Made by a program: the position numbers and the translations under genes. From a virus (taxonomy: Duplodnaviria > Caudoviricetes): a stretch of DNA of 56,547 bases. The first letter of the stretch is position 1. The number at the start of each line of letters is the position of its first letter. The notes beneath the pieces were generated by a model that saw only the letters and a list, made by a program, of their open reading frames with translations, made no database searches and was not told where the DNA came from. The stretch spans positions 1-56,547 of IMG/VR virus record IMGVR_UViG_3300003894_000008; one strand, given 5' to 3'. Positions 8,862-40,825 of the stretch are shown here, piece by piece.

Positions 8862-9626
8862 ATGGCTTACGGTCGCGATGGCATCGGCAATGAGGGCGGT
8901 CAGACTGGCGGGGGCCATGCTGGTGACGGTTCTGATCACGAGTTAGGTGCTGCCGCACAGGCCAACCGCTCGCGGGAGGGCAGGGTTGGTCAGGAGATAC
9001 GTGACCGTGCTGCTGCTGCGGAACGGGTTGAGTTACGTGCGAAGGAAGAGCGTGCCAAGCGAGCACGCGCCAAAGAGATTGAAGATATTTCGTTGTTTAA
9101 GGAGGCCCAGCAAAGGGGTGTCTGGGGTGCGGCATTAAACCATGTGAAGGGTTTGTTGCCTGGTGTGAATGTTCAGGCGAGGAATTACAAGAATGCGACG
9201 ATCAAGGGGCAACCGATTGATGCCCCGAATGTTGTTGATGTCAGTGCGGCTCGTGCTGTTGGTGACGTTATGGGCTTGGCTTTTGGTGTTCCTGGGGTGG
9301 GTGACGTTGCTGACGCTGCTACGAAGTCCATTGGTTTTGATACGACGGTTAATGATTACACGAAGGGCATGAGTGGTCCGAGCAGCACGCCTTCCAAGAA
9401 GGGCACGCCTGTTGGCGGTGACACCACTTTCGCGTCACGAGTCGCTGCTCCGACGACATCGGTAGCTCAGGCGGCACCGGCTCCAACGGGGAGTTACGGC
9501 ACGTCTCCGAGTGGTTTGTTGAGTAAGAACGTTGATTTATCGGCTTCACGCATTGAGCGGTTATCGCCGGTAGATCGGTTTCGGTCTGATTATTACAACG
9601 GTTATTATGGGAACAGGTACGGATGA
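8862..9626 (+). CDS. hypothetical protein (Gly/Ala/Thr-rich)
   Basis: 254-aa ORF with GAGG RBS, coupled to terS. Confidence 0.7.
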   Translation: MAYGRDGIGNEGGQTGGGHAGDGSDHELGAAAQANRSREGRVGQEIRDRAAAAERVELRAKEERAKRARAKEIEDISLFKEAQQRGVWGAALNHVKGLLPGVNVQARNYKNATIKGQPIDAPNVVDVSAARAVGDVMGLAFGVPGVGDVADAATKSIGFDTTVNDYTKGMSGPSSTPSKKGTPVGGDTTFASRVAAPTTSVAQAAPAPTGSYGTSPSGLLSKNVDLSASRIERLSPVDRFRSDYYNGYYGNRYG

Positions 9627-10210
9627 AGCGGTCGAGGGAAGAGCGCAAGGCTGAGAATTTGGCTGTTAAGGAGAATGAGATTGCTGTTGTTGCGGCTGAG
9701 AATGAGGCCAAGCGCGGCATGACGACGGTTCCGACGCCTTACAGTCCGGAGGTTGCTGAGGAGATTTTCGAGTGTCTGGCGAATGGTCAGAGTTTACGGG
9801 AGATCTGCAAGCGGCCTGAGATGCCTGCCCGTGGGAATGTTTACGCTTGGATACGGCATAATACGAATGGCTTTGCGGATCATTGGCGTGATGCGAAGCT
9901 GGCTGGCATTGAGTCGTTGGCTGATGACATTCTTGACATTGCTGATGATGGCACGAACGACTGGATGGAGCGTGCTGGCAAGGATGGCAAGGTTGAGGTT
10001 GTTGCTGACAAGGAGCATATTCAGCGTTCCAAGGTCCGGATTGACACGCGCAAGTGGTTGTTGGCGAAGTTGCTTCCGAAGGTTTACGGGGACAGTACGA
10101 AGGTACAGGTTGAGGATGTTACGGTTCGGGATCTGTCGGACGACCAGTTGCTGAAGAAGATTGCTTCGATGCAGAAGGTTATCGCTGATGGCACTGTCAT
10201 TGACGGCTGA
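9623..10210 (+). CDS. terS: terminase small subunit (Sf6-like)
   Basis: YSPEVAEEI..LANGQSLREIC HTH; DDILDIADD; RIDTRKWLLAKLLPKVYGD. Confidence 0.9.
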   Translation: MKRSREERKAENLAVKENEIAVVAAENEAKRGMTTVPTPYSPEVAEEIFECLANGQSLREICKRPEMPARGNVYAWIRHNTNGFADHWRDAKLAGIESLADDILDIADDGTNDWMERAGKDGKVEVVADKEHIQRSKVRIDTRKWLLAKLLPKVYGDSTKVQVEDVTVRDLSDDQLLKKIASMQKVIADGTVIDG

Positions 10211-10949
10211 TTCTTCTGGTTTGGCTCAGTTGAGTCGGAAAGAGCTTGAAGAGTACATGGCTGCTCTTGAGGAGCAGAAGCGGCGGATACAGCGGCGGTA
10301 TTACTACACGTTGTTTCCGGATGATGGGCCGTTGCGGCGGGATTTATATCCGAAGCACGTAGAGTTTTTTGCTGCTGGCATTGATTGTCGGGAGCGGTGT
10401 TTTATGGCTGCCAACCGTGTTGGCAAGACGGTTTCCGGTGGTTTTGAACTGACGGCTCACTTGACGGGTGAATATCCTGACTGGTGGGAGGGTCGGCGGT
10501 TTGACAGGCCGATACGGGCTTGGGCTGCTGGTAAGACGAACGAGACGGCGCGAGATATTGTCCAGATGAAGTTACTGGGGAAGATCACGCACGCTGATGG
10601 GCCGAGGAAGAAGCCTGACGGCACTGGAATTATTCCTGGTGATCTGCATGGCAGTTGCACATGGAAGCAGGGCATCACGGATTTTATTGATACGATTTAT
10701 GTGAAGCATGTTCCGACTGGCGAGTGGTCGCTGCTGGGGTTGAAGTCCTATCAGCAGGGGCGCGGGTCGTTTGAGGGAACGGAGCAGGATGTTATCTGGC
10801 TGGACGAAGAGCCGCCGGAGGATGTTTACGGTGAGTGTTTAATCAGGACGGCGACGACGAAGGGGTTGATTATGTTGTCGTTTACGCCGTTGGAGGGCAT
10901 GTCGTCGGTTGTGTTGTCGTACATGCCGCAGGAGATCAGGCCGGATTAG
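10188..10949 (+). CDS. terL: terminase large subunit, N-terminal (ATPase) part, P22 gp2-like
   Basis: Walker A AANRVGKT, Walker B IWLDEE, motif III SFTP; stops shortly after motif III. Confidence 0.9.
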   Translation: MALSLTADSSGLAQLSRKELEEYMAALEEQKRRIQRRYYYTLFPDDGPLRRDLYPKHVEFFAAGIDCRERCFMAANRVGKTVSGGFELTAHLTGEYPDWWEGRRFDRPIRAWAAGKTNETARDIVQMKLLGKITHADGPRKKPDGTGIIPGDLHGSCTWKQGITDFIDTIYVKHVPTGEWSLLGLKSYQQGRGSFEGTEQDVIWLDEEPPEDVYGECLIRTATTKGLIMLSFTPLEGMSSVVLSYMPQEIRPD

Positions 10950-11004
10950 GTTCGCCGCTAAATAGGCGCGACGGCTGCTACGGTAAGCGGCTACTGGGGC
11001 AATT

Positions 11005-11175
11005 ATGAAAATAGTTTTGTTGATTGTGACGTTGTATTTCGGCGGCGGTGAGTTGCGGTTGATTGCTGGAATCACGCATGAGGCAAGGGCCTGCGCGGAG
11101 ATGCGGCAGGATCTGTTAAGGGAAAACACGCTCTTGGTTGAGGGTGATGTGCGCTGCGCGAGGATTACGTTGTAG
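11005..11175 (+). CDS. inserted ORF 1 (56 aa, hydrophobic N-terminus)
   Basis: MKIVLLIVTLYFGGGEL...; its TAG abuts the next ATG. Confidence 0.5.
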   Translation: MKIVLLIVTLYFGGGELRLIAGITHEARACAEMRQDLLRENTLLVEGDVRCARITL

Positions 11176-11493
11176 ATGAAAAACAAGGCGGCTGAGGCAG
11201 GCAGGGACGGTCACAACTGGCTCTCTAATGGTCGGTCGCTGCGTGAGGAGCTGGGTGACTGGCTATCTCCGAGGGACACTTCGGAGGAGGATCAGGCGAT
11301 TGAGGATCTGAAGGCTGTTTTGCAGGCGATCATCAAGATCCGGCAGGAGCGTAATGAGTTCATGCGGAATAACCCGCAGCACACGATGAGGGCTGAGGTT
11401 GAGTTTGATGTCGAGAGGCGGATTGCGCTCCTTTCGCGGGAGGGTGATTGCATTCTGGCATTCCTTGAGGCGCTGAACGGTAAGCCGCGATGA
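11176..11493 (+). CDS. inserted ORF 2, hypothetical
   Basis: 105 aa; GAGG RBS. Confidence 0.6.
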   Translation: MKNKAAEAGRDGHNWLSNGRSLREELGDWLSPRDTSEEDQAIEDLKAVLQAIIKIRQERNEFMRNNPQHTMRAEVEFDVERRIALLSREGDCILAFLEALNGKPR

Positions 11494-11624
11494 CGGACTT
11501 GCAGGCGATATTACTGGGTTTTGGTTGGGGCGCTTTTATCGGCGTCCCTTTTGGTTATGGGGTTGTTGCGATTCTGTGGCGCATCGAGAAGCGCAGCATG
11601 GAGAAAGAGGGGAAGAATGGTTGA
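11490..11624 (+). CDS. inserted ORF 3, single-TM peptide (44 aa)
   Basis: MTDLQAILLGFGWGAFIGVPFGYGVVAILWR...; ATGA coupling. Confidence 0.5.
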   Translation: MTDLQAILLGFGWGAFIGVPFGYGVVAILWRIEKRSMEKEGKNG

Positions 11625-11817
11625 TTATGCAAGGCGGGATTTCCGCAAGTGGCAGAACAGGCCGCGAGGCACGGCGGAGATTTCGCCGGAAGCAGTTGAG
11701 CGCTTGGCTGAAAAGCGGAGGGCGCTGGTTATTAAACGACAGAATCGGTATGCGCGAGCGCACCCAGGAGAGTTCCTGAGTCGCAAGGAAACGCCGCGCC
11801 ATATTGCGGAAGGGTAG
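11617..11817 (+). CDS. inserted ORF 4, basic protein
   Basis: GAGGGG RBS; MVDYARRDFRKWQ... Confidence 0.55.
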   Translation: MVDYARRDFRKWQNRPRGTAEISPEAVERLAEKRRALVIKRQNRYARAHPGEFLSRKETPRHIAEG

Positions 11818-11822
11818 ACGTT

Positions 11823-12011
11823 ATGGGCCAGCGTGATCGTTACGGAGAGATCGCACTGGGGATTGCGTCAAGGGAACTTAGCAGGGAATGCGAACACGGT
11901 TATCGCCGCTCACAACTGGCATGGCGCTGGGTTGATGTGATGGCGCATGACCATGAATTGCAATTACCGCCAGAAGAGATGGAAGAGTATGAGAGCCTTC
12001 AAGATCGTTGA
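11823..12011 (+). CDS. inserted ORF 5, hypothetical
   Basis: 62-aa ORF in a packed operon. Confidence 0.5.
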   Translation: MGQRDRYGEIALGIASRELSRECEHGYRRSQLAWRWVDVMAHDHELQLPPEEMEEYESLQDR

Positions 12012-12306
12012 GGCCGATGAGGCTGGTATACGGACGTTATTTCACGGCCTGAACGGCAGTCGCACGATTGAGAAGGGTGTATGGCTGAAGGCTGACAAGA
12101 AGATGGTTAAGGATGGCACCAGCAAGACCACGTACTTGTCTGGCTGGCATGTTCTACCGACCTATGAGGACTGCGCGGAATACATGACGCGGTTCACGAA
12201 GCGTCTTGATTTGCTGAAGATTGTTGAGTGTGAGGTTCGGGATACGAGGCCGAAGGAGCATTCTCCGTCGCCAGTGTTGCTGGCTGATTACATGAAGTTG
12301 GTTTAG
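11989..12306 (+). CDS. inserted ORF 6, hypothetical
   Basis: MRAFKIVE...LFHGLNGSR...YLSGWHV; its stop abuts the TerL-C ATG. Confidence 0.65.
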   Translation: MRAFKIVEADEAGIRTLFHGLNGSRTIEKGVWLKADKKMVKDGTSKTTYLSGWHVLPTYEDCAEYMTRFTKRLDLLKIVECEVRDTRPKEHSPSPVLLADYMKLV

Positions 12307-13053
12307 ATGCCGAGAATTAGCGCATCGAAATATCTGGTCAACGCTGGCTGGGATGATGTGCCGCATCTTGACGAACAAACGAAGTCGGAATTGCTGGAAG
12401 CAACGCCGCCGTTTCTGAGGGACGCCAGAACGAAGGGCATCCCGTCGCTGGGGGCTGGTGCGATTTATCCGGTTGTCGAGAGTTCTGTTGTCTGTGATCC
12501 GTTTGAGATCCCTGAATACTGGCCCCGCTGTTACGGGCTTGACGTTGGCTGGAAGAAGACGGCGGCTGTGTGGGGCGCTTGGGACCGTGATGATGATGTT
12601 GTTTACATCTACACGGAGCATTACCGAGGGCAGGCAGAACCGGCGATACACGCGGCTGCGATTAACGCTCGCGGCACATGGATACCAGGAGTTATTGACC
12701 CCGCCAGTCGCGGCAGGGGTCAGAAGGACGGCGAGATGCTGTTCGAGGAATATGAGGGCCTTGGTCTAACGCTAGACAAGGCTGACAACGCCGTGGAGGC
12801 AGGCATTCACAAGATCTGGATGCGGCTTTCAACGGGCAGGCTAAAGATCTTTAGCACTTGCCAGAACTGGTTTTCGGAATATCGGCTTTATCGCCGGAAC
12901 GAGAACGGCAAGGTCGTTAAAGAGTTTGATCACTTAATGGACGCCACTCGCTACATGATTGCGAGCGGCTTGGACGTTGCGGAGGTTCAACCGATGAATC
13001 GGAGTTCCTTCACGACAAGGCCACACGCAGGCGACCAAGTAGCGGGATATTAG
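12307..13053 (+). CDS. terL: terminase large subunit, C-terminal part (lid plus RNase H-like nuclease)
   Basis: WDDVPHL, ARTKGIPSLGAG, GLDVGW, YRRNENGKVVK, DHLMDATRY. Confidence 0.9.
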   Translation: MPRISASKYLVNAGWDDVPHLDEQTKSELLEATPPFLRDARTKGIPSLGAGAIYPVVESSVVCDPFEIPEYWPRCYGLDVGWKKTAAVWGAWDRDDDVVYIYTEHYRGQAEPAIHAAAINARGTWIPGVIDPASRGRGQKDGEMLFEEYEGLGLTLDKADNAVEAGIHKIWMRLSTGRLKIFSTCQNWFSEYRLYRRNENGKVVKEFDHLMDATRYMIASGLDVAEVQPMNRSSFTTRPHAGDQVAGY

Positions 13054-13054
13054 T

Positions 13055-15127
13055 ATGAGCAACGGAAAAACCGACGCAAAGACGAAAGCGCCCATCGAGG
13101 AACAGATGCGTGCGATTGTTTATTCTTTGCAGACGCTTGCTGATGAGCAGGTGAAAAAGAAGGTTAGCACGGAAGACCGCTGGCTTGAAGATCTACAGAA
13201 TTATCATGGTCAGTATGATGCGGATACGCTGGCTAACTTAAAGGCGTCGAACAGTTCGCAGGTATTTGTGAATCTGACTCGATCAAAAACGAACGCTTGG
13301 GAAGCGCGTCTTTCAGACATGCTGTTTCCGACCGATGATAAGAACTGGGGCGTTAAACCGACGCCGGTTCCTGAGTTGGCTCAGGCGATTCAACGGGGTG
13401 ACGACACCGCACCTGATGAACATGCGGTAGCAGAAACTTCATCGAAAGCGATGGAGATTGAAATTGAGGATCAGTTTCGCGAGTGTCGTTACAACATAAA
13501 ATCGCGTGACATCATTCGCGACAGTTGTGTGCTTGGTTCCGGCATTATGAAGGGGCCGCTCACGTCTGAAAAAATGAAGCGCAAGTGGGTCGCTCCGCAG
13601 GAGGGTGGAGCGTTCGAGTTGACGCAGGTTGCAGATCCTGCGCCGAGCATGGAATGGGTTGATCCTTGGAATTACTTCCCTGACATGAACGCTCGCCGCA
13701 AGGGTGAGGAGGAATTTGAGTTCGAGCGCCACCTTCTGAACAAGAAGAAGATGCGCCAGCTTGCGAAGCGCCCAGGATTTTACAGGGACGCCATTCGCGA
13801 GATTCTGAAAGAAGATGCGGCGGAAGGCTTGCCTTCTTACGTTGCCCAGTTGAAGGCGATCACGGGCAGCGGCGAAACGATTGATCAGCGGTATCATGTC
13901 TGGGAATACCACGGTCCGATATCCGGTGAAGATCTGAAGTTGCTGTGTGAATGCCACGGCGAAAATGAGATGGCGAAAGCCTATGAGGATGATCCGCTTG
14001 AAGAGCTGAACGTGATTGTTTGGTTTTGTCAGGGCAAGATCCTGAAGTTTGCCGAGCATCCGCTCGACAGTGCCGAGAGCATGTACAGCGTGTTTAATCT
14101 GGAAAAGGACGACAGTTCCATTTTCGGTTATGGCGTGCCGTACCTGATGCGGAACAGCCAGAAGGTTATCAACTCTTCATGGCGCATGGTTCTGGACAAC
14201 AGTGGCCTTTCGACGGGACCGCAGGTTGTTGTGAACAACCAGATGATTGAGCCTGCTGATGGCGACTGGAAGCTGACGCCGCGCAAGTTGTGGAAGGCCA
14301 AGAACAAGAGCAATATCCCGATGGATCATGCTTTCAAGGTCTATCACATTGACGGCAGGCAGGAGCAATTGCTTCGCGTGATTGACGTTGCAAAGAGCTT
14401 TGCTGACGAAGAGACGAACCTGCCGTTGGTTGCGCAGGGCGAAAGCGGCTCGCACCAGACGCAGACATCCGGTGGCATGTCGATGCTGATGAACAGCGTC
14501 AACGTGGTTTTCCGGCGCGTTGTTAAGAACTTTGACGATGACTTCACCACGCCGAACATCCGGCGCATTTACGACTGGAACATGCAGTTTTCACCGAAGG
14601 AGCACATCAAGGGTGACTATGCTGTTGATGCTCGTGGTTCGAGCGTTCTCCTGGTTCGTGAAGTGCAGGCGCAGAACCTGATGCAGATCTTGGTTCAGTT
14701 CTCCGCGCATCCGGTGCTTGGTCCTTTGACGAAGGCTGCGAGCGGGTATCGCCAGATGGCGCAGGCTCACATGCTATCGGCTGACAGTCTGGTTAAGACT
14801 GATGAGGAACTGGAACTTGAAGCGAAGCAGGCGGCAGAAAATCCGCCTCCGCCAGATCCGGAAACAATGAAGATTCAGGCGCAGATGGAGCTTTCCAACA
14901 TGGAGTTGGAGGGCAAGATTGCGCTGGCAGAGATGGATCGCGAGACGAAGCTTATGGCTCTTGCGGCACAGAACGATATGCGGCTTGAAGATCTGCGCAC
15001 CAAGCTTGGTATGCACCAGATCGCCATCGACTCCAAGGAGCGTATGGAGCAGCACAAGACGGCTTCCAAGGAGCGGATCTTTGCTGCCGAAGCTGGCATG
15101 AAGCAGAAATACGGTGAGGGCATCTAA
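13055..15127 (+). CDS. portal protein (P22-like)
   Basis: 690 aa directly after terL; FVNLTRSK, VDPWNYFPD; helical C-terminal barrel-like region. Confidence 0.85.
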   Translation: MSNGKTDAKTKAPIEEQMRAIVYSLQTLADEQVKKKVSTEDRWLEDLQNYHGQYDADTLANLKASNSSQVFVNLTRSKTNAWEARLSDMLFPTDDKNWGVKPTPVPELAQAIQRGDDTAPDEHAVAETSSKAMEIEIEDQFRECRYNIKSRDIIRDSCVLGSGIMKGPLTSEKMKRKWVAPQEGGAFELTQVADPAPSMEWVDPWNYFPDMNARRKGEEEFEFERHLLNKKKMRQLAKRPGFYRDAIREILKEDAAEGLPSYVAQLKAITGSGETIDQRYHVWEYHGPISGEDLKLLCECHGENEMAKAYEDDPLEELNVIVWFCQGKILKFAEHPLDSAESMYSVFNLEKDDSSIFGYGVPYLMRNSQKVINSSWRMVLDNSGLSTGPQVVVNNQMIEPADGDWKLTPRKLWKAKNKSNIPMDHAFKVYHIDGRQEQLLRVIDVAKSFADEETNLPLVAQGESGSHQTQTSGGMSMLMNSVNVVFRRVVKNFDDDFTTPNIRRIYDWNMQFSPKEHIKGDYAVDARGSSVLLVREVQAQNLMQILVQFSAHPVLGPLTKAASGYRQMAQAHMLSADSLVKTDEELELEAKQAAENPPPPDPETMKIQAQMELSNMELEGKIALAEMDRETKLMALAAQNDMRLEDLRTKLGMHQIAIDSKERMEQHKTASKERIFAAEAGMKQKYGEGI

Positions 15128-29431: not shown

Positions 29432-32400
29432 ATGGCAAACGAATGGGAAGTTATTTCCGCCGTTCCATTCGATAGTGAAAAGCATTCACTTGTCGAAAGC
29501 AATGATCCGTGGGGTATTGCCAGTGTCGAGGACATTGCCGAGGAACCAGGCCGCATAACAACGGGCGTCAGTAACTTCGGTCGCGGTGTTGCGGATATTG
29601 TTTCTGGTATACCGAAATCCGTTTCCATACAACATGCGCAGAATGCCGATAAAGCGCTATCCATCTTTGATCGCATGGATGGAGGCGAGTTGCAGCAATA
29701 CTCCCCAGCCGAAAACGATACTGCCTTCGGCTTCGAGTTGGAGTTATCACGCTATCGAAGTGGAACGCCGGAAGAGCGAGCCGAAATTCGCAAGCGCGTC
29801 CAAGATGCGCGAGATCCCAGAAACTCAGACTTGTATAAAGCTGGCAAGTGGCTTGATGATGTCGTTGCCGATGCTCTGCCCGTAAACGAAGAATATCAAG
29901 ATGAGTTCTGGGCTACAAAGTTCTCTCGTGGTCTTGGCTCGATGGTCGGCTTTACTGGCGTTGGCTTGGTTGGTCGCGCTGCTGGCTTCGGGACGCTTGC
30001 CACAACCGGCACGTCTGGTATGGCGCTTGGCTCTGTTGAGGGTTTTGAAGATGCTGTACGCAATGGCGCGTCCCTGAAAGAAGCATACGAATCAGCAAAC
30101 CTGAATGGCGTTGTTGGCGTTTCTGAAGCGCTCCCTATCAGCCGCATGTTCAAGCGCCTCGATGATCTGTCGGGCGGAACTGTTGGCACAGCCATCAAGG
30201 AGGCCGTTAAGGAAGGCACTGAAGAGGCTATTCAGGAAGCGTTCCAAACAGTCATGGGCAATGTTATTGCCAATAATGATGCTTTAGGCGTTGGCTATGA
30301 TCCTGATCGCGGCACGTTCGAGGGATCAGGCGAGGGCGCTGCTGTCGGCTTTACAACTGGTGGCGTTGTCGGCTTTATCACTTCTCTGGTGTTCGGTCGT
30401 CGCGGCGGTCATAATGCTGGCGACGAAACGCCTCCGCCTCCTGGTATTCGTGAGAACGCCGCACCAGCACCGCTGACAGAAGCGGATCATAACTCCCCCA
30501 TCCCTGACGAACTTATTCAGCGTGGCAATGAAGAGATTGCCGACACAGATGCTATTGCATCAGCGAATGAGTCGCTGTCCAGATCTGGACTCCCAGAAAT
30601 CAATACGCATGTTGATGTTGATCTTGGCGACGGTCGGGGTGCGTCTAGGGGTGTTGTTACAGACGCCTTTGAATATGACGACCCCGTGGATGTAGGGGAG
30701 AAGGTTGCAGGCGTCACGATTGAGATGGCTGATGGTCGCAAGCTGCACAAGACAGCCAGTGAAATAGCGGCTACCGGCATACAAATCACACCGGCACAGG
30801 AAGAGACGCCTGTGACGCCCTCAGAAGAGGACACAGAGGCAACTGCCCCAGAGGCACCTGTCGCCCCAGAAGCTCCTATGGAGGACGCCACGCCCTCAGA
30901 TCCGGAGCCTGACGCTGCCCAGAGCATTGATTCTGACACAACGCCCGTTAAGCCTGAGCAAACGCTCGATGATGACGACCCATATGCGCCGCTCGATGAT
31001 GACAGTCTTGGCACTGATGAGCCGATGCCGGAAGAGGCGGCGCAGCCCCTTGAGCCGCAGTTGGCAAAAGGTGAGCTACCGATTATAGACGATAGGGAGC
31101 GCCAGCGCCTTGAAAACATTAAGGCGATGGAAGAGGCGCAGAAAGATAAACCGAAAGCTATCGGTCAAAACATCGACGGCGACGACATCTTTGAGGATGA
31201 TCGCGGTGTACGCCATATTGTGCGCGACGGCTTTAAGCACACCGAAAAAGTTGGCATCAAGCCTGACGGCAGTATCAGCGTTACACGCGACGACGACACG
31301 TACCTGACTGACGATGAACGAGCGCCAGCAAAAGAAGAGCAGGTAAAGACCAGCGCTTCCGATTCTGTCGTTGAGCATTTCCGCGCAGGTGGCAAGTTCA
31401 AGAATATCGTTGAGGCTCGCAAGTTTGTTCGTGAGCGCGATGGAGAACTGGACGATAAAGCTGTCGAGGAAGCGGTTGAAGCAGGCGTTGTAAAGCGTGC
31501 GCGTGAGATCGTGGCGGAAGGCAATGACGCCTCGGAGACGTACCAGCGCCTTGTCGATCTGTATTCATCGCAGCCCAACCTTAATACCCGCACCAGCACC
31601 AGCATCGAGAATCAGGCGTATAGCACGCCTGCGCCGTTGGCGTACTTGGCGTCACATGCGGCTGGTATCGACCAGAATACGACCGTTTATGAGCCGACCG
31701 CTGGCAATGGCATGTTGCTGATTGGTGCAGATCCAAGCAAATCAACTGCCAATGAATTAAATCCAGATCGCGTCAAGAGCCTAGAGGGGCAGGGCTTTAA
31801 GCCGTCTCAGGGCGATGCGATGGAGCATACGCCAAGCGGGAAGGTTGACGTTGTTATCGCTAATCCGCCTTTCGGCAGCGTCCTGATGGATGATGGCAAA
31901 ACAAACAAAACCTTTCCCTTGAGTGGCACGACGACAAATAAGATTGATGAAGCAATCTCCCTGCGTGCACTTGAGAGCATGAAGGATGATGGTCGTGCTG
32001 TCCTGATTATTGGCAGCAAACACGGCAGGAATGTAGACAGCACGCCACAAGAAGCAGCGATCAAGTATCGCTCTGGCAGGAAGTTCTTTAAGAAACTATA
32101 TGACGGCTACAATGTGATTGACCATTACACGGTCGATGGAAAGTTGTATAATAAGCAAGGCGCTCAATGGCCTGTCGATGTAATCGTTATTGAGGGCCGT
32201 GGCGGGTCTAAGCTTGATCTGCCAATGAAGACAGCCCCACAGGTCTTGAAGTCGTGGGATGATTTAAGGAGTAAGTTAGATGGCAGCAATCGCTTGGACA
32301 CCGCCGAGCAGCAAGATGGGGATGGGAACGATTCTGTTACGGAACGGTCTGAACAAGCCCCTGACGCTGGATCATTACAGGGGGGCGCTGGCGTCGCGAA

Positions 32401-35400
32401 TCGACCGGATGATTCGGAAGGAGTCTCCGGAAGTGGCAGCGGAAATGCTGAAAATAACGGACGAGCGGGAGAACCTACGGACGGACAACAACCTGAAAGC
32501 GGCAGGGGAGATACTGGCGGAGAACAGCGACCGCCTGATGTCGATGGCGGCACCAGGAATATTCCCAATGCAGGTGACGGAAGTGGAGAACAATCCAGCG
32601 GCCCATCAAATGATGAGGGAGGAAACGCTGGAGGACTTTCTGGCGATTCTGTATCCGTAGATCCCTTTGATGACATCTTCGATAGCGCTCTGAATGAAGC
32701 GTTTGGCGAGGAAGTCGAGAAAACTGCCCCGAAGGAAAAACCCAAAGCCGGTAAAGCAGCCAAGTCTGCCGCCGTGGAAACGGCAAAGGGGCTTGATGAT
32801 GTCACGGCTGGCCTTGCTGCGTTGTTCGGCGCAGATCCTAATCGTGTAAATTCCGGCTTGTCTTTCGATAAGGATACTTATGAGAAGGCGAAGCCGCTCT
32901 TTATCGCTGGTGTATCTCACTTCAAGACGGCTGGCGCTGATGTATCAGAAATGGTTAAGGCGCTGGTTGGTCACTTGGCTACGGTTGCCAAATTGCCCCG
33001 TGAGACGATTGAGCGTATGCGCCCATACGTCAAGCAGTTCATCGAGGATGTAAAATCTGGTGTTGTAGATCTGGCAGAGAAGGTAACGCCGAAGAAAAAG
33101 GCGCAAGCCAAGAAAGAAGATCCTTACGGCCTGACGGTTCCTGAGTACATCAACGTAGACAATGTTACAAACAGGCAAGAAATTCTTGATGCTGAAGAGC
33201 AAACTGATGCTCGTGAATTTGTCGCGGAGATTGTTAAACGTAAGATCTACGAGAACTTTGAAAGCTACGATCCCGAAAGCAAAGAAAGCAAAGCTGGCAT
33301 CCCGTGGTTTTATCAAGTGCGAAAGAAGTGGGAAGACAAGTACGACTCCAATGCTGACTATGTAAGTGCAAGCTGGGAGAAAGCGCCTAAAGGCGCAGAT
33401 GCCTCTAACTCTTTTAAAGGTTGGGTGCTGGCAGATGTGCTCGCTCTTAATCAAGCCATCAAAGAATACCGCAAGCTTACGAACAAAAGGCCAGAGCGTA
33501 AGGCTCCGGAAAAAGCAACTGATCGTGTGAATGAGGAAGTCGAGACGGACTTTCAGGTTCAATATGAGCCAACATCGCAGGCACGATATGCCGTTGGCAC
33601 ACTGGTTCCCCGCAACATGCAGACAGCTATGACCAGTGCGCTTGACGAACTGAAAGAGCGTGTTGGCGATATTGATGCTTATGTTGCTGATAAACTGGAT
33701 TACAGCGTTGATGAGGTTGTTGGCACAGACAAAGCGCCAGGATACTTCTCCGCCGAGCAGGTGGACGCCCTCGCGCTGGCTATCGACAACGTAGAGAACG
33801 GCGGCGGCTTTATCGTTGGTGATCAGACCGGCGTTGGCAAAGGTCGCTTTGTTGCCGGTATGCTCAAGTACGCCATGATGCAGGGCAAGACGCCTATCTT
33901 TGTTACAAAAAGTCCAGGATTGTTCGCTGATATGGTTCGCGATATGCGCGACATCGGCATGAATGACATCAGCGATAGGGTTATGGTGACGAACAATGGC
34001 TTGCGTAATGATAAAGCTATCCCGCTCGATGCAGATAATGCCGAAGATGTCCTCTCGTCTATGTCTAATGCGCAACAGAAGAGCGCGATGGAAAAGATTG
34101 AGTCCACTGGCGAATTGCCTGATGGCTCAGATATCCTTTTCACCAACTACAGCCAGATGCAATACATCAAAGGTCAAGATAATGTTCGGATGCGTGCGGT
34201 TCAGGCGCTCGCTCCTAACGCTGTAATCGTCCTTGATGAGAGCCATCTTGCAGGTGGTAGTGATGCCCCCAGAAGGATTAACCCTGAAACGGGCGAAGCA
34301 ATGCCAACAGGCGCTGACTTTGTGCGTGAAGTTTTGGAAGAAGCTCACGGCGTCGTTTACTCGTCTGCAACCTACGCTAAGAACCCTGCCGTTATGTCGC
34401 TGTACTTTAAGACCGACATCTCTCTTGGTGTAGATAATATCGGAGACTTGGCGGAAACCATTCGCGCTGGTGGCGTGCCGTTGCAGCAAGTCGTAGCGAA
34501 CATGCTGGTTGAATCTGGTCAGTACGCAAGACGTGAGCGCTCATTCGATGGCGTGAGCATCGAGCAAAGGCCACTTCCGACTGACCATGAAGCAGCAGAC
34601 ATCGCTTCTGATGCGCTTCGCAATATCTTTACGCTCGACAAGGATCTGATGACAGAAGCGCGTGAAGCCTTCATTGAAAGCTTTGCGCAGGCAGGCGCTG
34701 AGGGCGCGACTGACAATGCTGTAGGCGAGACGGGTGCCACGCAAACCGGCTTCTCTTCTATCATGCACAACGTCATCAACCAGATGCTCTTGGCTTTAAA
34801 AGCCGAGGCGGCTGTGGATCTCGCGATAGAACTACACAAGAACGGCGAAAAGCCCATCATCGCGCTCGCTAATACGAACGAGCAAATCATGCAGGACTAC
34901 ATCAGCGACCACAACATAGCGTTTGGCGATGAGATTAACGTCCCCTTTAACACCGTGCTTGAGCGTTACGTGCATCGTCTTCGTCGCATTACGATCAAGG
35001 ATGAGAACGACGAGAAGCAGCATATCACCATGACGGATGAGCAAGTCGCTGAATATGGCGGCGCTGATGCCTTGTCTGAACTGAAGCGTGTTGAGCAACT
35101 GGTCAAGGAGGCCAACCTTTCGCACCTGCCAGGAAGTCCTATCGACTACATTGCTGGCAGACTAAAGAAAGCAGGCGTCAATGTTGGCGAGATAACGGGG
35201 CGCTCGATCATCATCGAGGACGGACGGCTTACAAAGCGAGCCGGATCTGAGGCCGAGAAAAAACGGATTATGAACGGCTACAATAGCGGCGAGTTGGATT
35301 CATTGATTATCAATCAGTCTGGCTCTACTGGCTATTCCATGCACGCAACGGACAAAGCGGGGAATGACGGCAAGCAGCGACACTTGATTGTTCTGCAACC

Positions 35401-38400
35401 TGACGGGAACATTGACGTGTTCATGCAGATTCTTGGTCGTATCCACAGAACAGGCCAGATCAAGCTTCCAAATTACACTATCGGCATATCTGACTTGTCT
35501 GTTGAAAAGCGCCTTGCCGCCGTGCTGATGCGTAAGATGGCATCCCTTAACGCCAACACCACGGCTTCTAAGGACTCTGCGGTCAGCCTGAAAGAATCGG
35601 TGGACTTCCTGAACAGGTATGGCGACGAGATCGTGCAAGAATATCTGACAGAAAATCCTGAGATCGCCTCCATGACTGACATGGAAGAAAAGGCCACTGA
35701 CGGGATAGCTGCCAAGTTTACAGGCAGGCTGGCAATCATTGAGCCGGAAGTTGTCGAAAAGATATATGACGAGATCGAGGCGAACTACGTGGCGCATATC
35801 GAGGCGCTTGACCGTATGGGGATGAACACCCTTGAAGCCAAGACACTTGAACTGGATGCCAAGACGATAGACGAGATGGAACTGGTTCCTGCTGTTGATG
35901 ATGGCGATTCTCCGTTCACGGGCGCTGCTGTTGCAGAGACAGTTGATGTCAAGAAGCTTGGAAAGCCTTTCACAGAGGAAGAATTAAAAGCTGAAGGCGA
36001 AAAAATTCTTGATGGCAAAAGCCCCAGTGATTTTGTTGATGAGCAAATCGCAGAGATCAAGGCGAAGATGCCTCCATATATCGAGACTATCGACAAAAAG
36101 ATTGATGCTGCTGAACAGCTTGGTCAGGAATTAATGCTGGAAGCTGATGCAAAAGCTGCCGCCTTAGCAGAGGCGAGGGGTGAAGAATATAACGGAGTCC
36201 ACAAAAGCACAGCGAAAGAAAGAAAAGCATCCGAGACTAAAGCGCTATGGGAACTCAATAAACGCACCGCACAAGCCAAGCTGAATGTTATTCTGGACAA
36301 GCTTGAGCAATATAAGCCAGGAAAGTCTTTGCGTATCCGTGTGGCTGATGGTGAAAATGCGCAGTATCTCTACGCTGTTTCCCTTGGCGTGAACATTAAG
36401 GGTGTGTCGCACAACCCGACTGCTGCAAGTTCGTACAAGGTTCGCTTTGCTATTGCAGATTCAGGCCGTGAAATCACGATACCTCTATCCAAGATAGTTG
36501 GTGAGGAAGCATCATATTCGACAGAGGCTGTTGATCAAAGCACAGTCCTTGGCTTCTTCCGTGACGGCTTCCATGAATCCCGCGAAACGCGGCAGATGAT
36601 CACGGGCAACCTGCTACGTGGTTACGCCCAGTTTAAGAAGGGCCAGATCGTAATGTTCACTCGTGAGGATGGCTCAATCGAGCAGGGCATCCTCATGCCG
36701 AAAGAGTTCGACACGGCGACAGAGCTAGCGAAGCAGCCCGTTGAGTTCAAGGCGGCTAATCAAGTCCTTGAGTTTTTAAGGGATGGTCTTAATAGGCGGG
36801 TTCACTCCAAAGATGAAGTGATGTCATTCACCTATGAGCGCGGCATGTATGGCGGTGCGCCTAAGTGGAAGCTGCAAGTCAAGACTCGTGGCGGAAAGTC
36901 GTACTACCTGAACAAAGCTGTTCGCAAGCTGACCGGCGATTTTGTCAAAAGAAAAGGCGTTATGAGCGTTGAGATCAAGAGCGAGAACGATCTCAGGAAG
37001 ATCTTTGATATCTACCAAGAAAACCTTGGCACACGCTACGAAACCAAGACACACAAGCCAGAGGCGCGTGCGGTTACTGGTCAGGAAATTAAGGGTGAGG
37101 ATAAAGGTCAGGAAAAATTCTCGCGCCGCGACGATCTTCGCGCAGACGTTCTCGACCGCCTGCCGCGCATCGAGGCTGAATTGCAGGAGCGCCTTAAAGC
37201 GCTTGGCCTGAGCGGGAAGATCGCGTTGCGTTTTGTTGAAGCCATCAAGGCAAGGAATGAGGATGGCTCGTTCAGCCTTGCTGATGGCGTGTATCACCGC
37301 AAGCTGATCCGCATTGCGATGGATACGCTGGACAAGACGTTCACATTCAACCACGAAATCATTCACGCCTTACGAGATCTTGGCGTGCTGCGTGACATGG
37401 AATGGCGGAAGCTGGAGCAGGCTGCGCTGGCTGACACGCAAATGATGGATCGCGTTCGCCGCGAGAATGAAGGCGCTAACCTGACGGAAGAGCAGCTTAT
37501 CGAGGAAGCTGTTGCCAATATGTTTGGTGAGCGCAACGCCCAGAATGGCGGCTTCTTTAAACGCGCAATGAAACGCATCTCTGCATTCTTCAAAGCTGTT
37601 AGGGCTGCGTTCTCCAAGGAAGGCTACAAGACTGCCGAAGACATCTTCGAGGGCATCGAGGAAGGTTATGTCGGGCGGCGCTCCGGCAAGGGGCGTGGTG
37701 GCGTAGCTGACCGCATGGCATACTCCCGCCGCTTCGAGCATGGCGTGGAGATGCCGAAGCGCGACAGCGAGGCGCGGTGGCGTGACGCAACGAACGGCGT
37801 GAGCGATGCGTCAACACTGGTTGATCGCTTGAATGAATGGTTTGACGCGGTGATCCAAGGGTTCTCGCGCCACTACAAGCACCTTCCTAACGACCGCCGC
37901 TTTGCTAACGTTAAAGAGCAGTTGCGCAAGATGGAGGCCGCGCCGCAGGCTGCGAAGGATGACATCGTGCGTATGCTCCGTGACATCACGGAAGGCATGA
38001 CACCAGCGGATCTGGATCTCTTTACTCGTAAGGTTGTCCTTGAGGATCTTCTCTGGGAAGCGCAGAACGACCACGACCTGCCATTCGGCTTAAAGGATGA
38101 AGCAGGCGTTCGCGAGGCTCTTGCCGCCGTTGACTCCGCTTTGCAGGGGCGTGCAGATCTACAGGAGAAGCTGCGCAAGAGGCAAGCGCTGTCCTCACGT
38201 ATCGCGGCGGCAATGGTTGAGGCTGGCGTGCTGACTAAAGAGCAGGTCGCCAACCCGTCATATTACCGGCACATGGTCCTCGAACATGCACGTTCGCAGA
38301 ACGCATTTGTTTCGGACGCAACCAAGAAAATTAAAAGCCCGTTCTGGTTCGCTCGCAAAGGCTCAAAGAAGGACATCAACGCGAACCTTCTGGAAGCCGA

Positions 38401-40825
38401 GTTCGACTGGATGCACAAAGCGCTTGTGGATATTCAGACAGCCAAGACGATTGAAGCTATTAAGAAGTCGAAGCTGAACATCCGCGACAAGGTGGTTGCG
38501 GCAGCTAAAAGGCTCAACGCTGAGATGATGCAGCGCTTGATCAACGAGGACATCGACAAGAACGGTTACGACAAGCTGAACTCTAAGGGTGAAGTCGAGC
38601 GCACCAGCCCCATGAATGAGCAGATGAAGGCTTATAAGCAGCAGATAGCTATGGGCCTGAACTTTGTTGCGCAGGCGCTTGAGGATAATGAGATCCGCAT
38701 CCCTGCACGCTTTGAATCCACTGTCGAGGGCTTGCTCGATAAGGATGCTGAAAGCGGTGGAGAGTTGTTCCCGTTCCTGACATGGCTTCTCGATAACGGA
38801 CTTCCAGGATCTAACGGGGCGGCTGTGGTTTACAAGGCAGTGAACGCAAGGAAAGCTTGGGTTAAGGAGTCTCTGGGATCTGATTACACAAACCCGCTCA
38901 AGATTGATGAGTTGATCGCTCGCGGCCTAGCGCCTGAAGGGTATACGTCCTGGCAACCGGAAGAAGGCAAGATCCTTTACACGGCTCAGACGCTTTCTGA
39001 ACACGCGCAACAGAAGATGTTACGCACGATCATGCAATCGCCTTCGGATTATATGCCGAAAGATATTGCTGATGTTGTAAGCGCTGAACTGAGTGATCAC
39101 CTGACTGAATCATTGGTTGTCGGTGGCGATAAATACAAGCTTATCATTCCAGAAGAACTCGCAGTGACGCTTGACAGTATGCGTGATGTGCCAGCGAGCA
39201 ATGCGCTTTCATACACAACCGGCAAGACGCTTTCAGCTTGGAAGATCTGGACGCTTATCAACCCGCGCCGCGTTATTAAGTACAACCTGAACAACCTGTC
39301 TGGCGACCTTGATGCTGTAATTGCTGGCAATCCTAGCGCACTGAAGCATATGGGGCAGGCGATCCGCGAATTGACGGACGTGATGCTCAAAGGCAATGAG
39401 CCTTCTGCACGCTACCGCGAAGCCGTTGATCGAGGTGTGTTTGATAGCGGCATGTCTATTCAGGAAGTTCCGGACATCTCCTTCCTTGGTGAGTTCGAGC
39501 ATTTGCGCGATCAATCAAATCGGCTCGACAAGCTGAGTGCACGGGCAATCAAGAAGATCTGGCGCGGCATGAAGAAGGGGACTCAATGGCGTGAGAACTG
39601 GTTGCGTTACGCTGCGTATCTCGATTATGCGGAGCGCCTTGAGGCAGGCGAAAGCATGGAATCGGTTGGGTATGGCGCTGCCATTCCTGAGATCGTTGAT
39701 AACGTTCACGACAATAAAGACAAGGCTGCGCTGCTTGCTCGTGAACTGGTTGGCGATTACGGAAATGTTTCTGAAATCGGTCAAGGGCTGCGCCGCCATG
39801 TGATGCCGTTCTATTCGTGGATAGAGATCAACACCAAGCGTTACTGGCGCTTGAACGCGAACGCATGGAGCCAGGGCGTAGCTAAGGGTGCCGCAACATC
39901 AGGCGGTCTGGCTGTCGCGAAAGGCGCACGGTTTACAGCGTGGGCATATATCCGAATGGCAATGGTCTATGGCCTTGTCTCGATGTGGAACAACCTGTTC
40001 TTTGGGGATGAAGAGGAAGAACTGGACGAAGCGGATCGCGTTCGCCTCCACATCAACCTTGGCAAGTGGGACGGCGAGATCCATACGATTAAGTTCCAAG
40101 GCGCATTGTCTGACTTTATGGGCTGGGTTGGCTTCGAAGATGCAATGACAATGTACCTGAAGATTGATGAAGGCAAGGCGGATTGGGGCGATGTCGCGGA
40201 GAAAATATACAAAGCGCCAGTCAATAGGCTGGTCAGTGCGGTACGCCCTGACTTTAAGTTGCCTGTTGAATTGCTTGGCGAAATAAGCTTCTACCCTGAC
40301 GCCTTTGAGCCGAGCAGTCTACGCGATGGATGGCGTCACACCTTCCGCACATTCTCCTTCGAGCATGAGTATGATCTTGTTGCAGGCAAGCCTTCGCGTG
40401 GATATGCGCAGTCCCTGAAGAACACGGTTGTATATACGCGAGATCCCAATGAGGTCGCTTATAATGCCGCACGCAAGCTGGCAATTGATTGGAATCAAGA
40501 GCGCCTTGGGATGTCTGGCAGTGGCGGATACCACACAGAGCGTGGCGATCTGGTTTACCAGATCAAGAAGGCGGTTCGCTTTAAAGATAAGGCTGTACGG
40601 GCTGCGAAGGAGCAGGAGCTTCGTGATCTGATTAAGCGTGATAATGCTAGTGGCCTGCGCAAGCGAACAAGCTTCGAGAAGGTTATTCAGTCATCAGTCA
40701 AAAGGGCGCATCCCCTCTATAGAATCCCGAAAGGTCTGCGCATGACGTACCTGCGAACCCTTTCGAGCGCTGACAGAAGGGCGTTAAACACAGCAATTCA
40801 ATGGTGGGAAAAGGTATATAAATAG
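29432..40825 (+). CDS. giant polyvalent DarB-like protein: amino-methyltransferase, Strawberry-notch SF2 helicase, HExxH domain, LPD-like C-terminus
   Basis: YSTP / EPTAGNG / IANPPF (about 31.6-31.9 kb); GDQTGVGKGR (33818), DESH (34235), SAT, QILGRIHRTGQ; HEIIH (37352). Confidence 0.85.
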   Translation: MANEWEVISAVPFDSEKHSLVESNDPWGIASVEDIAEEPGRITTGVSNFGRGVADIVSGIPKSVSIQHAQNADKALSIFDRMDGGELQQYSPAENDTAFGFELELSRYRSGTPEERAEIRKRVQDARDPRNSDLYKAGKWLDDVVADALPVNEEYQDEFWATKFSRGLGSMVGFTGVGLVGRAAGFGTLATTGTSGMALGSVEGFEDAVRNGASLKEAYESANLNGVVGVSEALPISRMFKRLDDLSGGTVGTAIKEAVKEGTEEAIQEAFQTVMGNVIANNDALGVGYDPDRGTFEGSGEGAAVGFTTGGVVGFITSLVFGRRGGHNAGDETPPPPGIRENAAPAPLTEADHNSPIPDELIQRGNEEIADTDAIASANESLSRSGLPEINTHVDVDLGDGRGASRGVVTDAFEYDDPVDVGEKVAGVTIEMADGRKLHKTASEIAATGIQITPAQEETPVTPSEEDTEATAPEAPVAPEAPMEDATPSDPEPDAAQSIDSDTTPVKPEQTLDDDDPYAPLDDDSLGTDEPMPEEAAQPLEPQLAKGELPIIDDRERQRLENIKAMEEAQKDKPKAIGQNIDGDDIFEDDRGVRHIVRDGFKHTEKVGIKPDGSISVTRDDDTYLTDDERAPAKEEQVKTSASDSVVEHFRAGGKFKNIVEARKFVRERDGELDDKAVEEAVEAGVVKRAREIVAEGNDASETYQRLVDLYSSQPNLNTRTSTSIENQAYSTPAPLAYLASHAAGIDQNTTVYEPTAGNGMLLIGADPSKSTANELNPDRVKSLEGQGFKPSQGDAMEHTPSGKVDVVIANPPFGSVLMDDGKTNKTFPLSGTTTNKIDEAISLRALESMKDDGRAVLIIGSKHGRNVDSTPQEAAIKYRSGRKFFKKLYDGYNVIDHYTVDGKLYNKQGAQWPVDVIVIEGRGGSKLDLPMKTAPQVLKSWDDLRSKLDGSNRLDTAEQQDGDGNDSVTERSEQAPDAGSLQGGAGVANRPDDSEGVSGSGSGNAENNGRAGEPTDGQQPESGRGDTGGEQRPPDVDGGTRNIPNAGDGSGEQSSGPSNDEGGNAGGLSGDSVSVDPFDDIFDSALNEAFGEEVEKTAPKEKPKAGKAAKSAAVETAKGLDDVTAGLAALFGADPNRVNSGLSFDKDTYEKAKPLFIAGVSHFKTAGADVSEMVKALVGHLATVAKLPRETIERMRPYVKQFIEDVKSGVVDLAEKVTPKKKAQAKKEDPYGLTVPEYINVDNVTNRQEILDAEEQTDAREFVAEIVKRKIYENFESYDPESKESKAGIPWFYQVRKKWEDKYDSNADYVSASWEKAPKGADASNSFKGWVLADVLALNQAIKEYRKLTNKRPERKAPEKATDRVNEEVETDFQVQYEPTSQARYAVGTLVPRNMQTAMTSALDELKERVGDIDAYVADKLDYSVDEVVGTDKAPGYFSAEQVDALALAIDNVENGGGFIVGDQTGVGKGRFVAGMLKYAMMQGKTPIFVTKSPGLFADMVRDMRDIGMNDISDRVMVTNNGLRNDKAIPLDADNAEDVLSSMSNAQQKSAMEKIESTGELPDGSDILFTNYSQMQYIKGQDNVRMRAVQALAPNAVIVLDESHLAGGSDAPRRINPETGEAMPTGADFVREVLEEAHGVVYSSATYAKNPAVMSLYFKTDISLGVDNIGDLAETIRAGGVPLQQVVANMLVESGQYARRERSFDGVSIEQRPLPTDHEAADIASDALRNIFTLDKDLMTEAREAFIESFAQAGAEGATDNAVGETGATQTGFSSIMHNVINQMLLALKAEAAVDLAIELHKNGEKPIIALANTNEQIMQDYISDHNIAFGDEINVPFNTVLERYVHRLRRITIKDENDEKQHITMTDEQVAEYGGADALSELKRVEQLVKEANLSHLPGSPIDYIAGRLKKAGVNVGEITGRSIIIEDGRLTKRAGSEAEKKRIMNGYNSGELDSLIINQSGSTGYSMHATDKAGNDGKQRHLIVLQPDGNIDVFMQILGRIHRTGQIKLPNYTIGISDLSVEKRLAAVLMRKMASLNANTTASKDSAVSLKESVDFLNRYGDEIVQEYLTENPEIASMTDMEEKATDGIAAKFTGRLAIIEPEVVEKIYDEIEANYVAHIEALDRMGMNTLEAKTLELDAKTIDEMELVPAVDDGDSPFTGAAVAETVDVKKLGKPFTEEELKAEGEKILDGKSPSDFVDEQIAEIKAKMPPYIETIDKKIDAAEQLGQELMLEADAKAAALAEARGEEYNGVHKSTAKERKASETKALWELNKRTAQAKLNVILDKLEQYKPGKSLRIRVADGENAQYLYAVSLGVNIKGVSHNPTAASSYKVRFAIADSGREITIPLSKIVGEEASYSTEAVDQSTVLGFFRDGFHESRETRQMITGNLLRGYAQFKKGQIVMFTREDGSIEQGILMPKEFDTATELAKQPVEFKAANQVLEFLRDGLNRRVHSKDEVMSFTYERGMYGGAPKWKLQVKTRGGKSYYLNKAVRKLTGDFVKRKGVMSVEIKSENDLRKIFDIYQENLGTRYETKTHKPEARAVTGQEIKGEDKGQEKFSRRDDLRADVLDRLPRIEAELQERLKALGLSGKIALRFVEAIKARNEDGSFSLADGVYHRKLIRIAMDTLDKTFTFNHEIIHALRDLGVLRDMEWRKLEQAALADTQMMDRVRRENEGANLTEEQLIEEAVANMFGERNAQNGGFFKRAMKRISAFFKAVRAAFSKEGYKTAEDIFEGIEEGYVGRRSGKGRGGVADRMAYSRRFEHGVEMPKRDSEARWRDATNGVSDASTLVDRLNEWFDAVIQGFSRHYKHLPNDRRFANVKEQLRKMEAAPQAAKDDIVRMLRDITEGMTPADLDLFTRKVVLEDLLWEAQNDHDLPFGLKDEAGVREALAAVDSALQGRADLQEKLRKRQALSSRIAAAMVEAGVLTKEQVANPSYYRHMVLEHARSQNAFVSDATKKIKSPFWFARKGSKKDINANLLEAEFDWMHKALVDIQTAKTIEAIKKSKLNIRDKVVAAAKRLNAEMMQRLINEDIDKNGYDKLNSKGEVERTSPMNEQMKAYKQQIAMGLNFVAQALEDNEIRIPARFESTVEGLLDKDAESGGELFPFLTWLLDNGLPGSNGAAVVYKAVNARKAWVKESLGSDYTNPLKIDELIARGLAPEGYTSWQPEEGKILYTAQTLSEHAQQKMLRTIMQSPSDYMPKDIADVVSAELSDHLTESLVVGGDKYKLIIPEELAVTLDSMRDVPASNALSYTTGKTLSAWKIWTLINPRRVIKYNLNNLSGDLDAVIAGNPSALKHMGQAIRELTDVMLKGNEPSARYREAVDRGVFDSGMSIQEVPDISFLGEFEHLRDQSNRLDKLSARAIKKIWRGMKKGTQWRENWLRYAAYLDYAERLEAGESMESVGYGAAIPEIVDNVHDNKDKAALLARELVGDYGNVSEIGQGLRRHVMPFYSWIEINTKRYWRLNANAWSQGVAKGAATSGGLAVAKGARFTAWAYIRMAMVYGLVSMWNNLFFGDEEEELDEADRVRLHINLGKWDGEIHTIKFQGALSDFMGWVGFEDAMTMYLKIDEGKADWGDVAEKIYKAPVNRLVSAVRPDFKLPVELLGEISFYPDAFEPSSLRDGWRHTFRTFSFEHEYDLVAGKPSRGYAQSLKNTVVYTRDPNEVAYNAARKLAIDWNQERLGMSGSGGYHTERGDLVYQIKKAVRFKDKAVRAAKEQELRDLIKRDNASGLRKRTSFEKVIQSSVKRAHPLYRIPKGLRMTYLRTLSSADRRALNTAIQWWEKVYK

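Follow-up and report, generated by a model that had tools for sequence, protein, structure and literature searches.

Large terminase subunits (TerL) of the P22/Sf6 type carry an ATPase part (Pfam Terminase_6N) and a nuclease part (Terminase_6C) on one chain. Every solved TerL structure matched in this work is a single chain, and mechanical models of the packaging motor likewise treat TerL as one chain, with force passing between the ATPase and nuclease domains. Here, we describe the packaging genes of an uncultured phage (IMG/VR record IMGVR_UViG_3300003894_000008), in which this protein is encoded by two genes. The whole record of 56,547 nt, rated 95% complete, was analyzed and is referred to as the window. 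Its two genes, TerL-N (10188..10949, + strand) and TerL-C (12307..13053, + strand), share with one-chain P22/Sf6-type terminases the family, the motifs, the order of elements, and the small terminase subunit (terS) and portal genes as neighbors, but the window's protein is cut within the ATPase domain (at position 145 of the 215 positions of the Pfam model), and 1357 nt with six open reading frames (ORFs) lie between the two parts. We consider it probable that the large terminase of this phage consists of two polypeptides, made from two genes, that reassemble.

RNAP1 and RNAP2 of N4-like phages form one enzyme. Their genes are separated by zero to eight spacer genes, some of them encoding HNH endonucleases (PMC5418858); the enzyme differs, but half-enzyme genes with variable, unrelated genes in between are likewise what the window displays. 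In Aeromonas phage Aeh1, mobE, which encodes a free-standing homing endonuclease, interrupts nrdA (Friedrich et al. 2007, cited in PMC5418858), and the phage's ribonucleotide reductase is described as an enzyme with genes in pieces (Crona et al., PMC3045599). There, as here, the gene of an essential enzyme is cut into two ORFs by an insertion, neither an intron nor an intein is involved, and the products would have to reassemble. As in genes in pieces, no coding sequence has been lost in the window, but no homing endonuclease gene is present between its pieces. An endonuclease VII gene sits in the break in two relatives (L026 and L027), whereas the window's clade retains no endonuclease, its split is old and clade-wide, and the unrelated cargo between the halves ranges from 0 to 9.2 kb. 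Finally, terL itself is interrupted by group I introns or inteins in Jug phages (PMC12880540) and in crAss-like phages cited there; the gene likewise falls into several ORFs and is a target of mobile elements, yet one chain is restored there by RNA or protein splicing, whereas the window has neither an intron model match nor intein sequence.

A similar gene pair is found in MW202785.1 (uncultured Podoviridae sp. ct2G2228), where two adjacent coding sequences (CDS) of 255 and 243 aa, both named 'large terminase protein', are separated by a 133-nt spacer in the same loop. This record, whose annotation is automatic only, is the best match in the phage collection to both halves of the window (50% and 62% identity), and we found no paper discussing its split. 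The phage collection contained no DNA nearly identical to the window stretch. An intron-less, intein-less, clade-wide two-gene TerL with a variable cargo slot was not found in the literature covered, which was incomplete.

TerL-N (253 aa) represents the ATPase part, as judged from Pfam, its motifs, and alignment with one-chain homologs. It carries Walker A (NRVGKT), Walker B (WLDEE), and motif III (SFTP) and ends in ...SYMPQEIRPD, with the stop codon at 10947-10949, in a variable loop 16 residues past motif III. Because Terminase_6N is matched only at model positions 1-145 of 215 (E 7.3e-13), the break falls within the Pfam ATPase model; a search of PDB sequences with TerL-N gave no match. TerL-C (248 aa) starts at 12307, in a frame other than that of TerL-N, with the N-terminus MPRISASKYLVNAGWDDVPHL. 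Its residues 1 to ~47 hold ATPase-domain structure (a first beta-strand, SKYLVNA, and the helices that follow), after which comes the RNase H-like nuclease with the motifs LDVGW, IDPAS, and DHLMDATRY. The assignment is based on Terminase_6C (E 2.2e-14), on the structure of the P22 gp2 nuclease domain (4DKW, matched by residues 48-217 with E 3.2e-25), and on contacts in the complex model described below. Compared with the one-chain TerL of EBPR podovirus 1 (JF412294.1), with which the window shares 52-57% identity, the halves join exactly, without a missing or additional residue (adjusted gap 0), and the distance from the aromatic residue of F-[LM]-P to the end of the next strand is 20 residues both in the joined halves and in EBPR podovirus 1. 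A stop and a new start keep the two domains off one polypeptide; the other characteristics of Terminase_6 proteins are present, including the position between terS and portal in the gene order terS, TerL-N, six small ORFs, TerL-C, portal. Terminase families were matched by none of the 46 other ORFs of the window, i.e. there is no second terminase.

These results agree with an initial annotation of the locus, which had TerL-N ending just past motif III and TerL-C resuming ~1.36 kb further on (the gap, 10950-12306, measures 1357 nt), all catalytic motifs intact with apparently nothing lost, and the break inside the ATPase domain, a position that the complex model sharpens to just before the strand predicted to pair with the Walker A strand. 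The annotation had also seen six small packed genes in the gap, none of them resembling an HNH, GIY-YIG, or LAGLIDADG endonuclease, a reverse transcriptase, or an intein. All six lie on the same strand, and they gave neither a significant Pfam match (best E 0.03, below the curated cut-offs) nor a PHROG match; in these two databases, the gap yielded no recombinase, reverse transcriptase, homing endonuclease, or nuclease family.

A survey of the breakpoint, as suggested by the same annotation, revealed that the split recurs. Both halves were compared with each of 80 viral loci related to TerL-N. TerL is one open frame in 52 loci, and L037 also reads through the loop before its contig ends. The halves are separate ORFs in 23 loci. 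In four others, the N-half runs into a stop and the stretch fetched contains no C-half, giving 27 split loci, all cut in the same variable loop. For three of these four, the C-half was located further downstream on the same strand, 5.8 kb (L010) or 9.2 kb (L012, L013) away; the record of the fourth (L028) ends 2.8 kb past the stop. Some of the 27 are near-copies of each other (L005/6, L008/9, L012/13, L015/16, L017/18, and L026/27). All breaks lie between an F-[LM]-P-x-G motif and an S-K-[YF]-V-V strand, where one-chain relatives vary in loop length and sequence, and wherever the contig is long enough, both halves are located on the same strand between terS and portal. Host-genome contigs contributed 21 loci only (four split N-halves, i.e. 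L093, L094, L095, and L097, as well as 14 one-chain and three partial loci), too thin a sample for naming hosts. A differently placed cut was noted in the cultured Xanthomonas phage DES1 (L003, OK624832.1, 2902-5235), whose terL is annotated as two CDS separated after ~118 residues by a 166-aa hypothetical ORF.

N-half-length proteins are also abundant beyond these loci. A word-index search of a collection of 5.8 billion proteins returned 4188 proteins of 139-443 residues matching TerL-N at E <= 1e-20. Among the best 120 of these (60-70% identical, the window's own protein included), 117 end at most 40 residues past motif III, and three have no recognisable motif III. Two of these N-half-length relatives carry NCBI names, Cupriavidus sp. 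USMAA2-4 and a Comamonas metagenome-assembled genome (MAG). The N-half tails of the nearest relatives (P0002-P0120) share P-x-[DE]-x-R-[PL] after F-[LM]-P, e.g. ...PADQRP and ...PKEYRP, with ...PQEIRPD in the window. Sixty of the 150 best-matching 50%-identity representatives stop within the loop, and 35 continue into the C-half by a strict pattern; 36 have no recognisable motif III, and 19 fall outside the patterns (by eye, 14 continue and five are unclear).

Of the 60 N-half-only representatives, 20 exceed 400 residues, and all six of these that were tested carry intein or LAGLIDADG/homing-endonuclease domains at sites other than the break. Split TerL halves are hosts of inteins themselves. 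The six proteins (P0121, P0124, P0125, P0127, P0131, and P0246; 552-892 aa) contain intein-splicing, Hint, or LAGLIDADG domains, inserted close to Walker A or at a later position. The terminase family being such a frequent intein host, and terL genes being known to contain split inteins, atypically split ones included (PMC2677866), a split intein might join the two translated halves, in the manner of 'fractured genes'. For the window, this is extremely unlikely. Together, TerL-N and TerL-C correspond to the one-chain homolog without any extra residue, which leaves no space for an intein; neither half gave a Pfam match to a Hint or intein family at E <= 1; and the end of TerL-N is not an intein N-piece, nor is the Met-Pro of TerL-C preceded by a C-piece.

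To what extent the halves are preserved was assessed on trees and close pairs. In the tree of N-halves (IQ-TREE quick search, 83 rows; L003 was omitted because of its partial match), the window falls into a clade of 18 rows, all of them split (SH-aLRT 98). Since branch lengths inside this clade amount to 0.3-1.1 changes per site, the split state is old. The split label requires nine changes on the tree, at least two of which are forced by starred branches; therefore, more than one event of origin, transfer, or reversal has taken place. The split rows retain Walker A GK[TS] and Walker B DEE throughout (28 of 28), and likewise the first nuclease Asp (25 of 25). Ratios of dN/dS were calculated by the Nei-Gojobori method on close split pairs, more distant pairs being saturated. 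For the N- and C-half, they were 0.042 and 0.031 in L015/L017 (dS 0.35-0.40), 0.037 and 0 in L005/L006 (dS about 0.09), and 0.043 and 0.024 in L062/L058 (dS about 1.2, near saturation). Values of this order (0.03-0.04 in both halves) argue for purifying selection on both halves and against decay in either. The two-gene arrangement is an old one, kept by selection.

These data also bear on the view that terL is simply broken, its non-functional halves being the remains of a decaying prophage or an artefact of assembly or sequencing. The phage is temperate, since it encodes a tyrosine integrase (45630-46712, minus strand) and a CI-like repressor with a Peptidase_S24 domain (54802-55515, + strand; both Pfam/PHROG), it is known solely as a metagenome contig, and in one split relative, L058, the C-half matches only from residue 88, all of which would be compatible with a broken gene. 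Nevertheless, we regard a broken terL as very unlikely. Besides the low dN/dS and the full set of catalytic motifs, the same break recurs across many contigs and samples that are independent of each other. A 23,245-nt contig from a separate assembly, made by another assembler possibly from the run of the source sample and hence not independent data, has 0 differences over 9600-13600 at a depth of 42; because it is identical there, an assembler quirk is excluded. Of the refutations named by the initial annotation, decay of either half was not seen in dN/dS, and the second assembly gave no sign of misassembly. The structural module is otherwise intact in a record of this completeness. Inteins and homing elements persist in genes still in use, and from their presence in all six long N-half-only representatives tested we infer that such half-genes are still used.

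How two chains could form one enzyme was explored by structure prediction. The AlphaFold model of the one-chain relative L023 (mean confidence score pLDDT 73, moderate), the fold of which matches TerL of D6E, HK97, T4, and Sf6, has the break site in a loop (225-234, pLDDT under 50) between helix 218-223 and strand 237-242. A model of the window's two halves as a complex, also proposed by the initial annotation, was built with alignments of split relatives. Its interface score (ipSAE) was 0.83 (0.82, 0.83, and 0.83 in the runs) versus 0.00 for the best control; among solved complexes, 116 of 157 attain the mark set for this score, compared with 2 of 215 among mismatched pairs. At least 80% of contacts were common to the runs, with a partner pLDDT of at least 79. 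The tightest modelled contacts join TerL-C 8-14 (KYLVNAG) to TerL-N 69-75 (ERCFMAA), the strand leading into the P-loop NRVGKT. Further contacts are predicted for motif III, the N-half tail 233-248 (including 244-248), and the C-half residues 17-21 and 40-49.

The usual order of strands in the sheet of ASCE ATPases is 5-1-4-3-2, and by this order the C-half would supply the fifth core strand of the ATPase sheet. In the arrangement suggested by the model, TerL-N would bring the strands with Walker A, Walker B, and motif III, and TerL-C the beta-strand that comes next, its following helices, and the nuclease. The halves would reassemble non-covalently into an active enzyme, with TerL-C strand 8-14 beside the TerL-N Walker A strand 69-75, so that the nuclease would be attached to the motor via a shared sheet rather than a continuous chain. 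As a prediction, the model suggests that the halves can rebuild the known fold; it speaks of likeness, not of binding.

The two halves do not share the same history throughout. The tree of C-halves (77 rows; rows matching <=150 residues were omitted) does not recover the clade of N-halves. Six split rows (L005/6, L007, L008/9, and L019) have N-halves 62-65% identical to that of the window but C-halves only 40-47% identical. Their C-halves branch near the base and share AWPHDG or AWPADG, where P22 gp2 and a Rhizobium phage read WPHDG. Forcing 17 rows of the N-clade together lowered the log likelihood by 61 (delta lnL; p-AU 0.029), and the C-half data thus reject this clade. This is moderate evidence that hints at an exchange of TerL halves between phages, from trees of a quick search with long branches.

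Such discordance, together with the distant, P22/Rhizobium-like C-half of those six rows and the separation of halves by up to ~9 kb in some relatives, would also be expected if two chains were made that no longer rebuild a classical TerL, one half having been co-opted as a stand-alone nuclease or as an ATPase with another partner. We consider this improbable, given that, where the contig suffices, one strand of the terS-portal interval invariably carries both halves and that no other terminase is encoded in the window. Moreover, the predicted interface is made of residues flanking the break, as would be expected of halves that reassemble.

At the junctions, several layouts occur among split relatives: (i) halves that overlap by 1-23 nt, in a +1 or -1 frame; (ii) an in-frame TAG followed by ATG (L036, L097); and (iii) spacers of 108 nt to 9.2 kb. 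Every type retains the stop of the N-half and the start of the C-half, and judging from these sequences, no one common frameshift or bypass rule fits them. In the window, programmed frameshifting or bypass was ruled out by the 1357 nt with six ORFs between the halves. A Met-Pro start ahead of the S-K-Y-L-V strand is found in the C-halves of about half of the distinct split lineages, including L026/27 and L070 outside the window's clade; the C-halves of L007 and L019 have Val-Pro and Leu-Pro at the start, the codons being GTG and TTG. TerL-C of the window starts directly after the stop of the last gap ORF (TAG ATG), and this fits translational coupling, so that translation of TerL-C may be coupled to that ORF.

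A second option raised by the initial annotation, next to a two-chain terminase sheltering cargo genes, was that the halves are rejoined, the insert being removed from RNA as an intron or ribozyme or from DNA by excision between two copies of ATGCCG, which do occur in frame at 10923 and 12307. Joining these copies would yield an open frame whose loop, at 12 residues, is of natural length (12 also in Rhizobium phage RHph_N2), and PMC12880540 documents spliced group I introns that interrupt terL in phages. Even so, rejoining is very improbable here. An Rfam search of 9500-14000 at E <= 10 gave only a chance snoRNA match and, in line with the annotation's failure to see a group I or II core, no intron family; nor was an intron family found in nine split relatives at E <= 1. 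ATGCCG is common, with 53 copies in the window versus 44 +/- 6 in shuffles, so that the chance origin allowed for by the annotation fits, and both copies encode Met-Pro for protein reasons (the F-[LM]-P motif at 10923 and the conserved Met-Pro start at 12307). No longer direct repeat flanks the insert, which is full of packed coding ORFs and has none of the recombinase, reverse transcriptase, or homing endonuclease families searched for. In relatives, gaps of 5.8 and 9.2 kb with large virion structural genes are implausible as introns or excisable elements, and where halves overlap in different frames, no rejoining is needed. When the window's halves are simply concatenated, the loop already has the 20 residues found in EBPR podovirus 1. 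The options consequently fared differently: rejoining lost ground with the lack of an intron and the commonness of the hexamer, whereas the two-chain terminase with cargo gained from recurrence, purifying selection, and the variable gap.

The content of the gap differs among relatives, from nothing, with some halves overlapping, to 9.2 kb of genes. In L026 and L027, a gene for a 120-aa endonuclease VII (phrog_2914, E 5.8e-32) lies exactly in the break, and TerL of the sister L034 is one chain; a split can thus arise by insertion of a free-standing homing-type endonuclease gene into a tolerant loop, in parallel to nrdA and mobE of phage Aeh1. At least one split of the kind seen in the window probably arose in this way, through an endonuclease VII gene. 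Two relatives encode Tad2-like (Thoeris anti-defence 2) domains between the halves (L088:2573-2851 and L089:5072-5476 (minus strand); PF11195, E 1.6e-25 and 1.8e-21), and the 9.2-kb gap of L088 also contains a PDDEXK_14 endonuclease gene (E 1.3e-13). The 5.8- and 9.2-kb gaps encode proteins of the virion structure, 767 and 1262 aa in length (phrog_10356, phrog_2804), the 767-aa protein being weakly similar to the tail fibre of the window (23% over 217 residues). L008 (723-1241) and L009 (5655-6173) have a 519-nt spacer between the halves without a convincing ORF or Rfam match.

Given these contents, the interval serves as a slot whose accessory genes differ between phages, and it would be transcribed together with the packaging operon. 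Promoter-like and terminator-like sites at the locus are not in excess of shuffles. A more specific and rather tentative idea is that the break is a standing cargo slot in which the half-genes serve as homology arms and as an anchor against deletion, with the halves being exchanged independently to give a mix-and-match motor. If so, the packaging motor of a large group of temperate phages would be a two-part machine, its cargo consisting of anti-defence genes, host-range or virion genes, and homing endonuclease genes.

Several observations weigh against a functional two-chain terminase. (i) No cultured phage with this split was among the 60 matches listed from the 50,697-record phage collection, and the split members are all uncultured contigs, MAGs, or unstudied prophages. 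(ii) The stretch had no match in RNA runs, including two runs of the same study labelled metatranscriptomic. (iii) The score of the complex may reflect the model's memory of solved one-chain terminases (5OE8, 4IDH, 3CPE). (iv) The trees come from a quick search and have long branches, a caveat that holds for the exchange of halves as well. (v) Individual C-halves are irregular: besides the late-starting match of L058, that of L019 has no ATG or GTG start, and in L015-L018 the homology to one-chain TerL continues in the -1 frame ahead of the C-half's first GTG, just behind a GGGAGGG run. The halves of the latter overlap by one base (L015:1660-1710, L017:1540-1590, also in L016 and L018), and the layout is kept between variants at dS 0.35; for these four loci only, a programmed -1 shift giving a fused chain, or an unusual start codon, is possible from the sequence. 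(vi) TerL-C of the window has no Shine-Dalgarno-like core upstream, but this is little informative, because such a core precedes only 10 of 30 genes of the phage.

A two-gene terminase would matter in several respects. A natural, selected TerL cut within the ATPase sheet, beside the Walker A strand as modelled, offers a ready test of which connections the motor needs. As terL is a standard marker of phage phylogeny and genome completeness, half-length genes will be taken for fragments or pseudogenes, and N- and C-halves can give differing histories. The slot between the halves, with Tad2-like domains in two relatives, is also a place to seek new accessory and anti-defence genes.

In the window, the first of the six gap ORFs (11005..11175, 56 aa; from the ORF list) is abutted at its stop by the start of the second (11176..11493, 105 aa; TAG ATG), which in turn shares an ATGA overlap with the third (11490..11624, 44 aa). 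The latter has a hydrophobic stretch, as read from the translation, and is possibly a small membrane peptide. The fourth (11617..11817) is basic, with 66 aa from the in-frame ATG or 98 aa from a TTG at 11521, and is followed by the fifth (11823..12011, 62 aa). The sixth (11989..12306, 105 aa, or 119 aa if started at 11947) belongs to an unnamed virus-only protein family: in a feature search, its nearest Atlas clusters have 55-245 members, 100% of them from viruses (score 0.97), and no Pfam family, and a scan of viral contigs gave no relative. All six are on the + strand.

Flanking the split gene on the + strand are TerS (9623..10210; Pfam Sf6_terminase, E 9.1e-35), which overlaps the start of TerL-N by 23 nt, and the portal protein (13055..15127; Pfam SU10_portal, PHROG 332 and 1216), which begins 2 nt past TerL-C. 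The phage is podovirus-like by Pfam and PHROG, with an SU10-type portal and adaptor, a major head protein, and a tail fibre encoded. Upstream of the packaging genes of L019, two tRNA genes were noted (601-758; Rfam tRNA, E 1.9e-10 and 1.1e-09). The late region of the window contains a single ORF of 3797 aa (29432-40825, + strand) with domains of a Strawberry-notch-type helicase, namely AAA_34 (residues 1440-1720, E 4.2e-22) and Helicase_C_4 (residues 1917-2076, E 1.1e-18).

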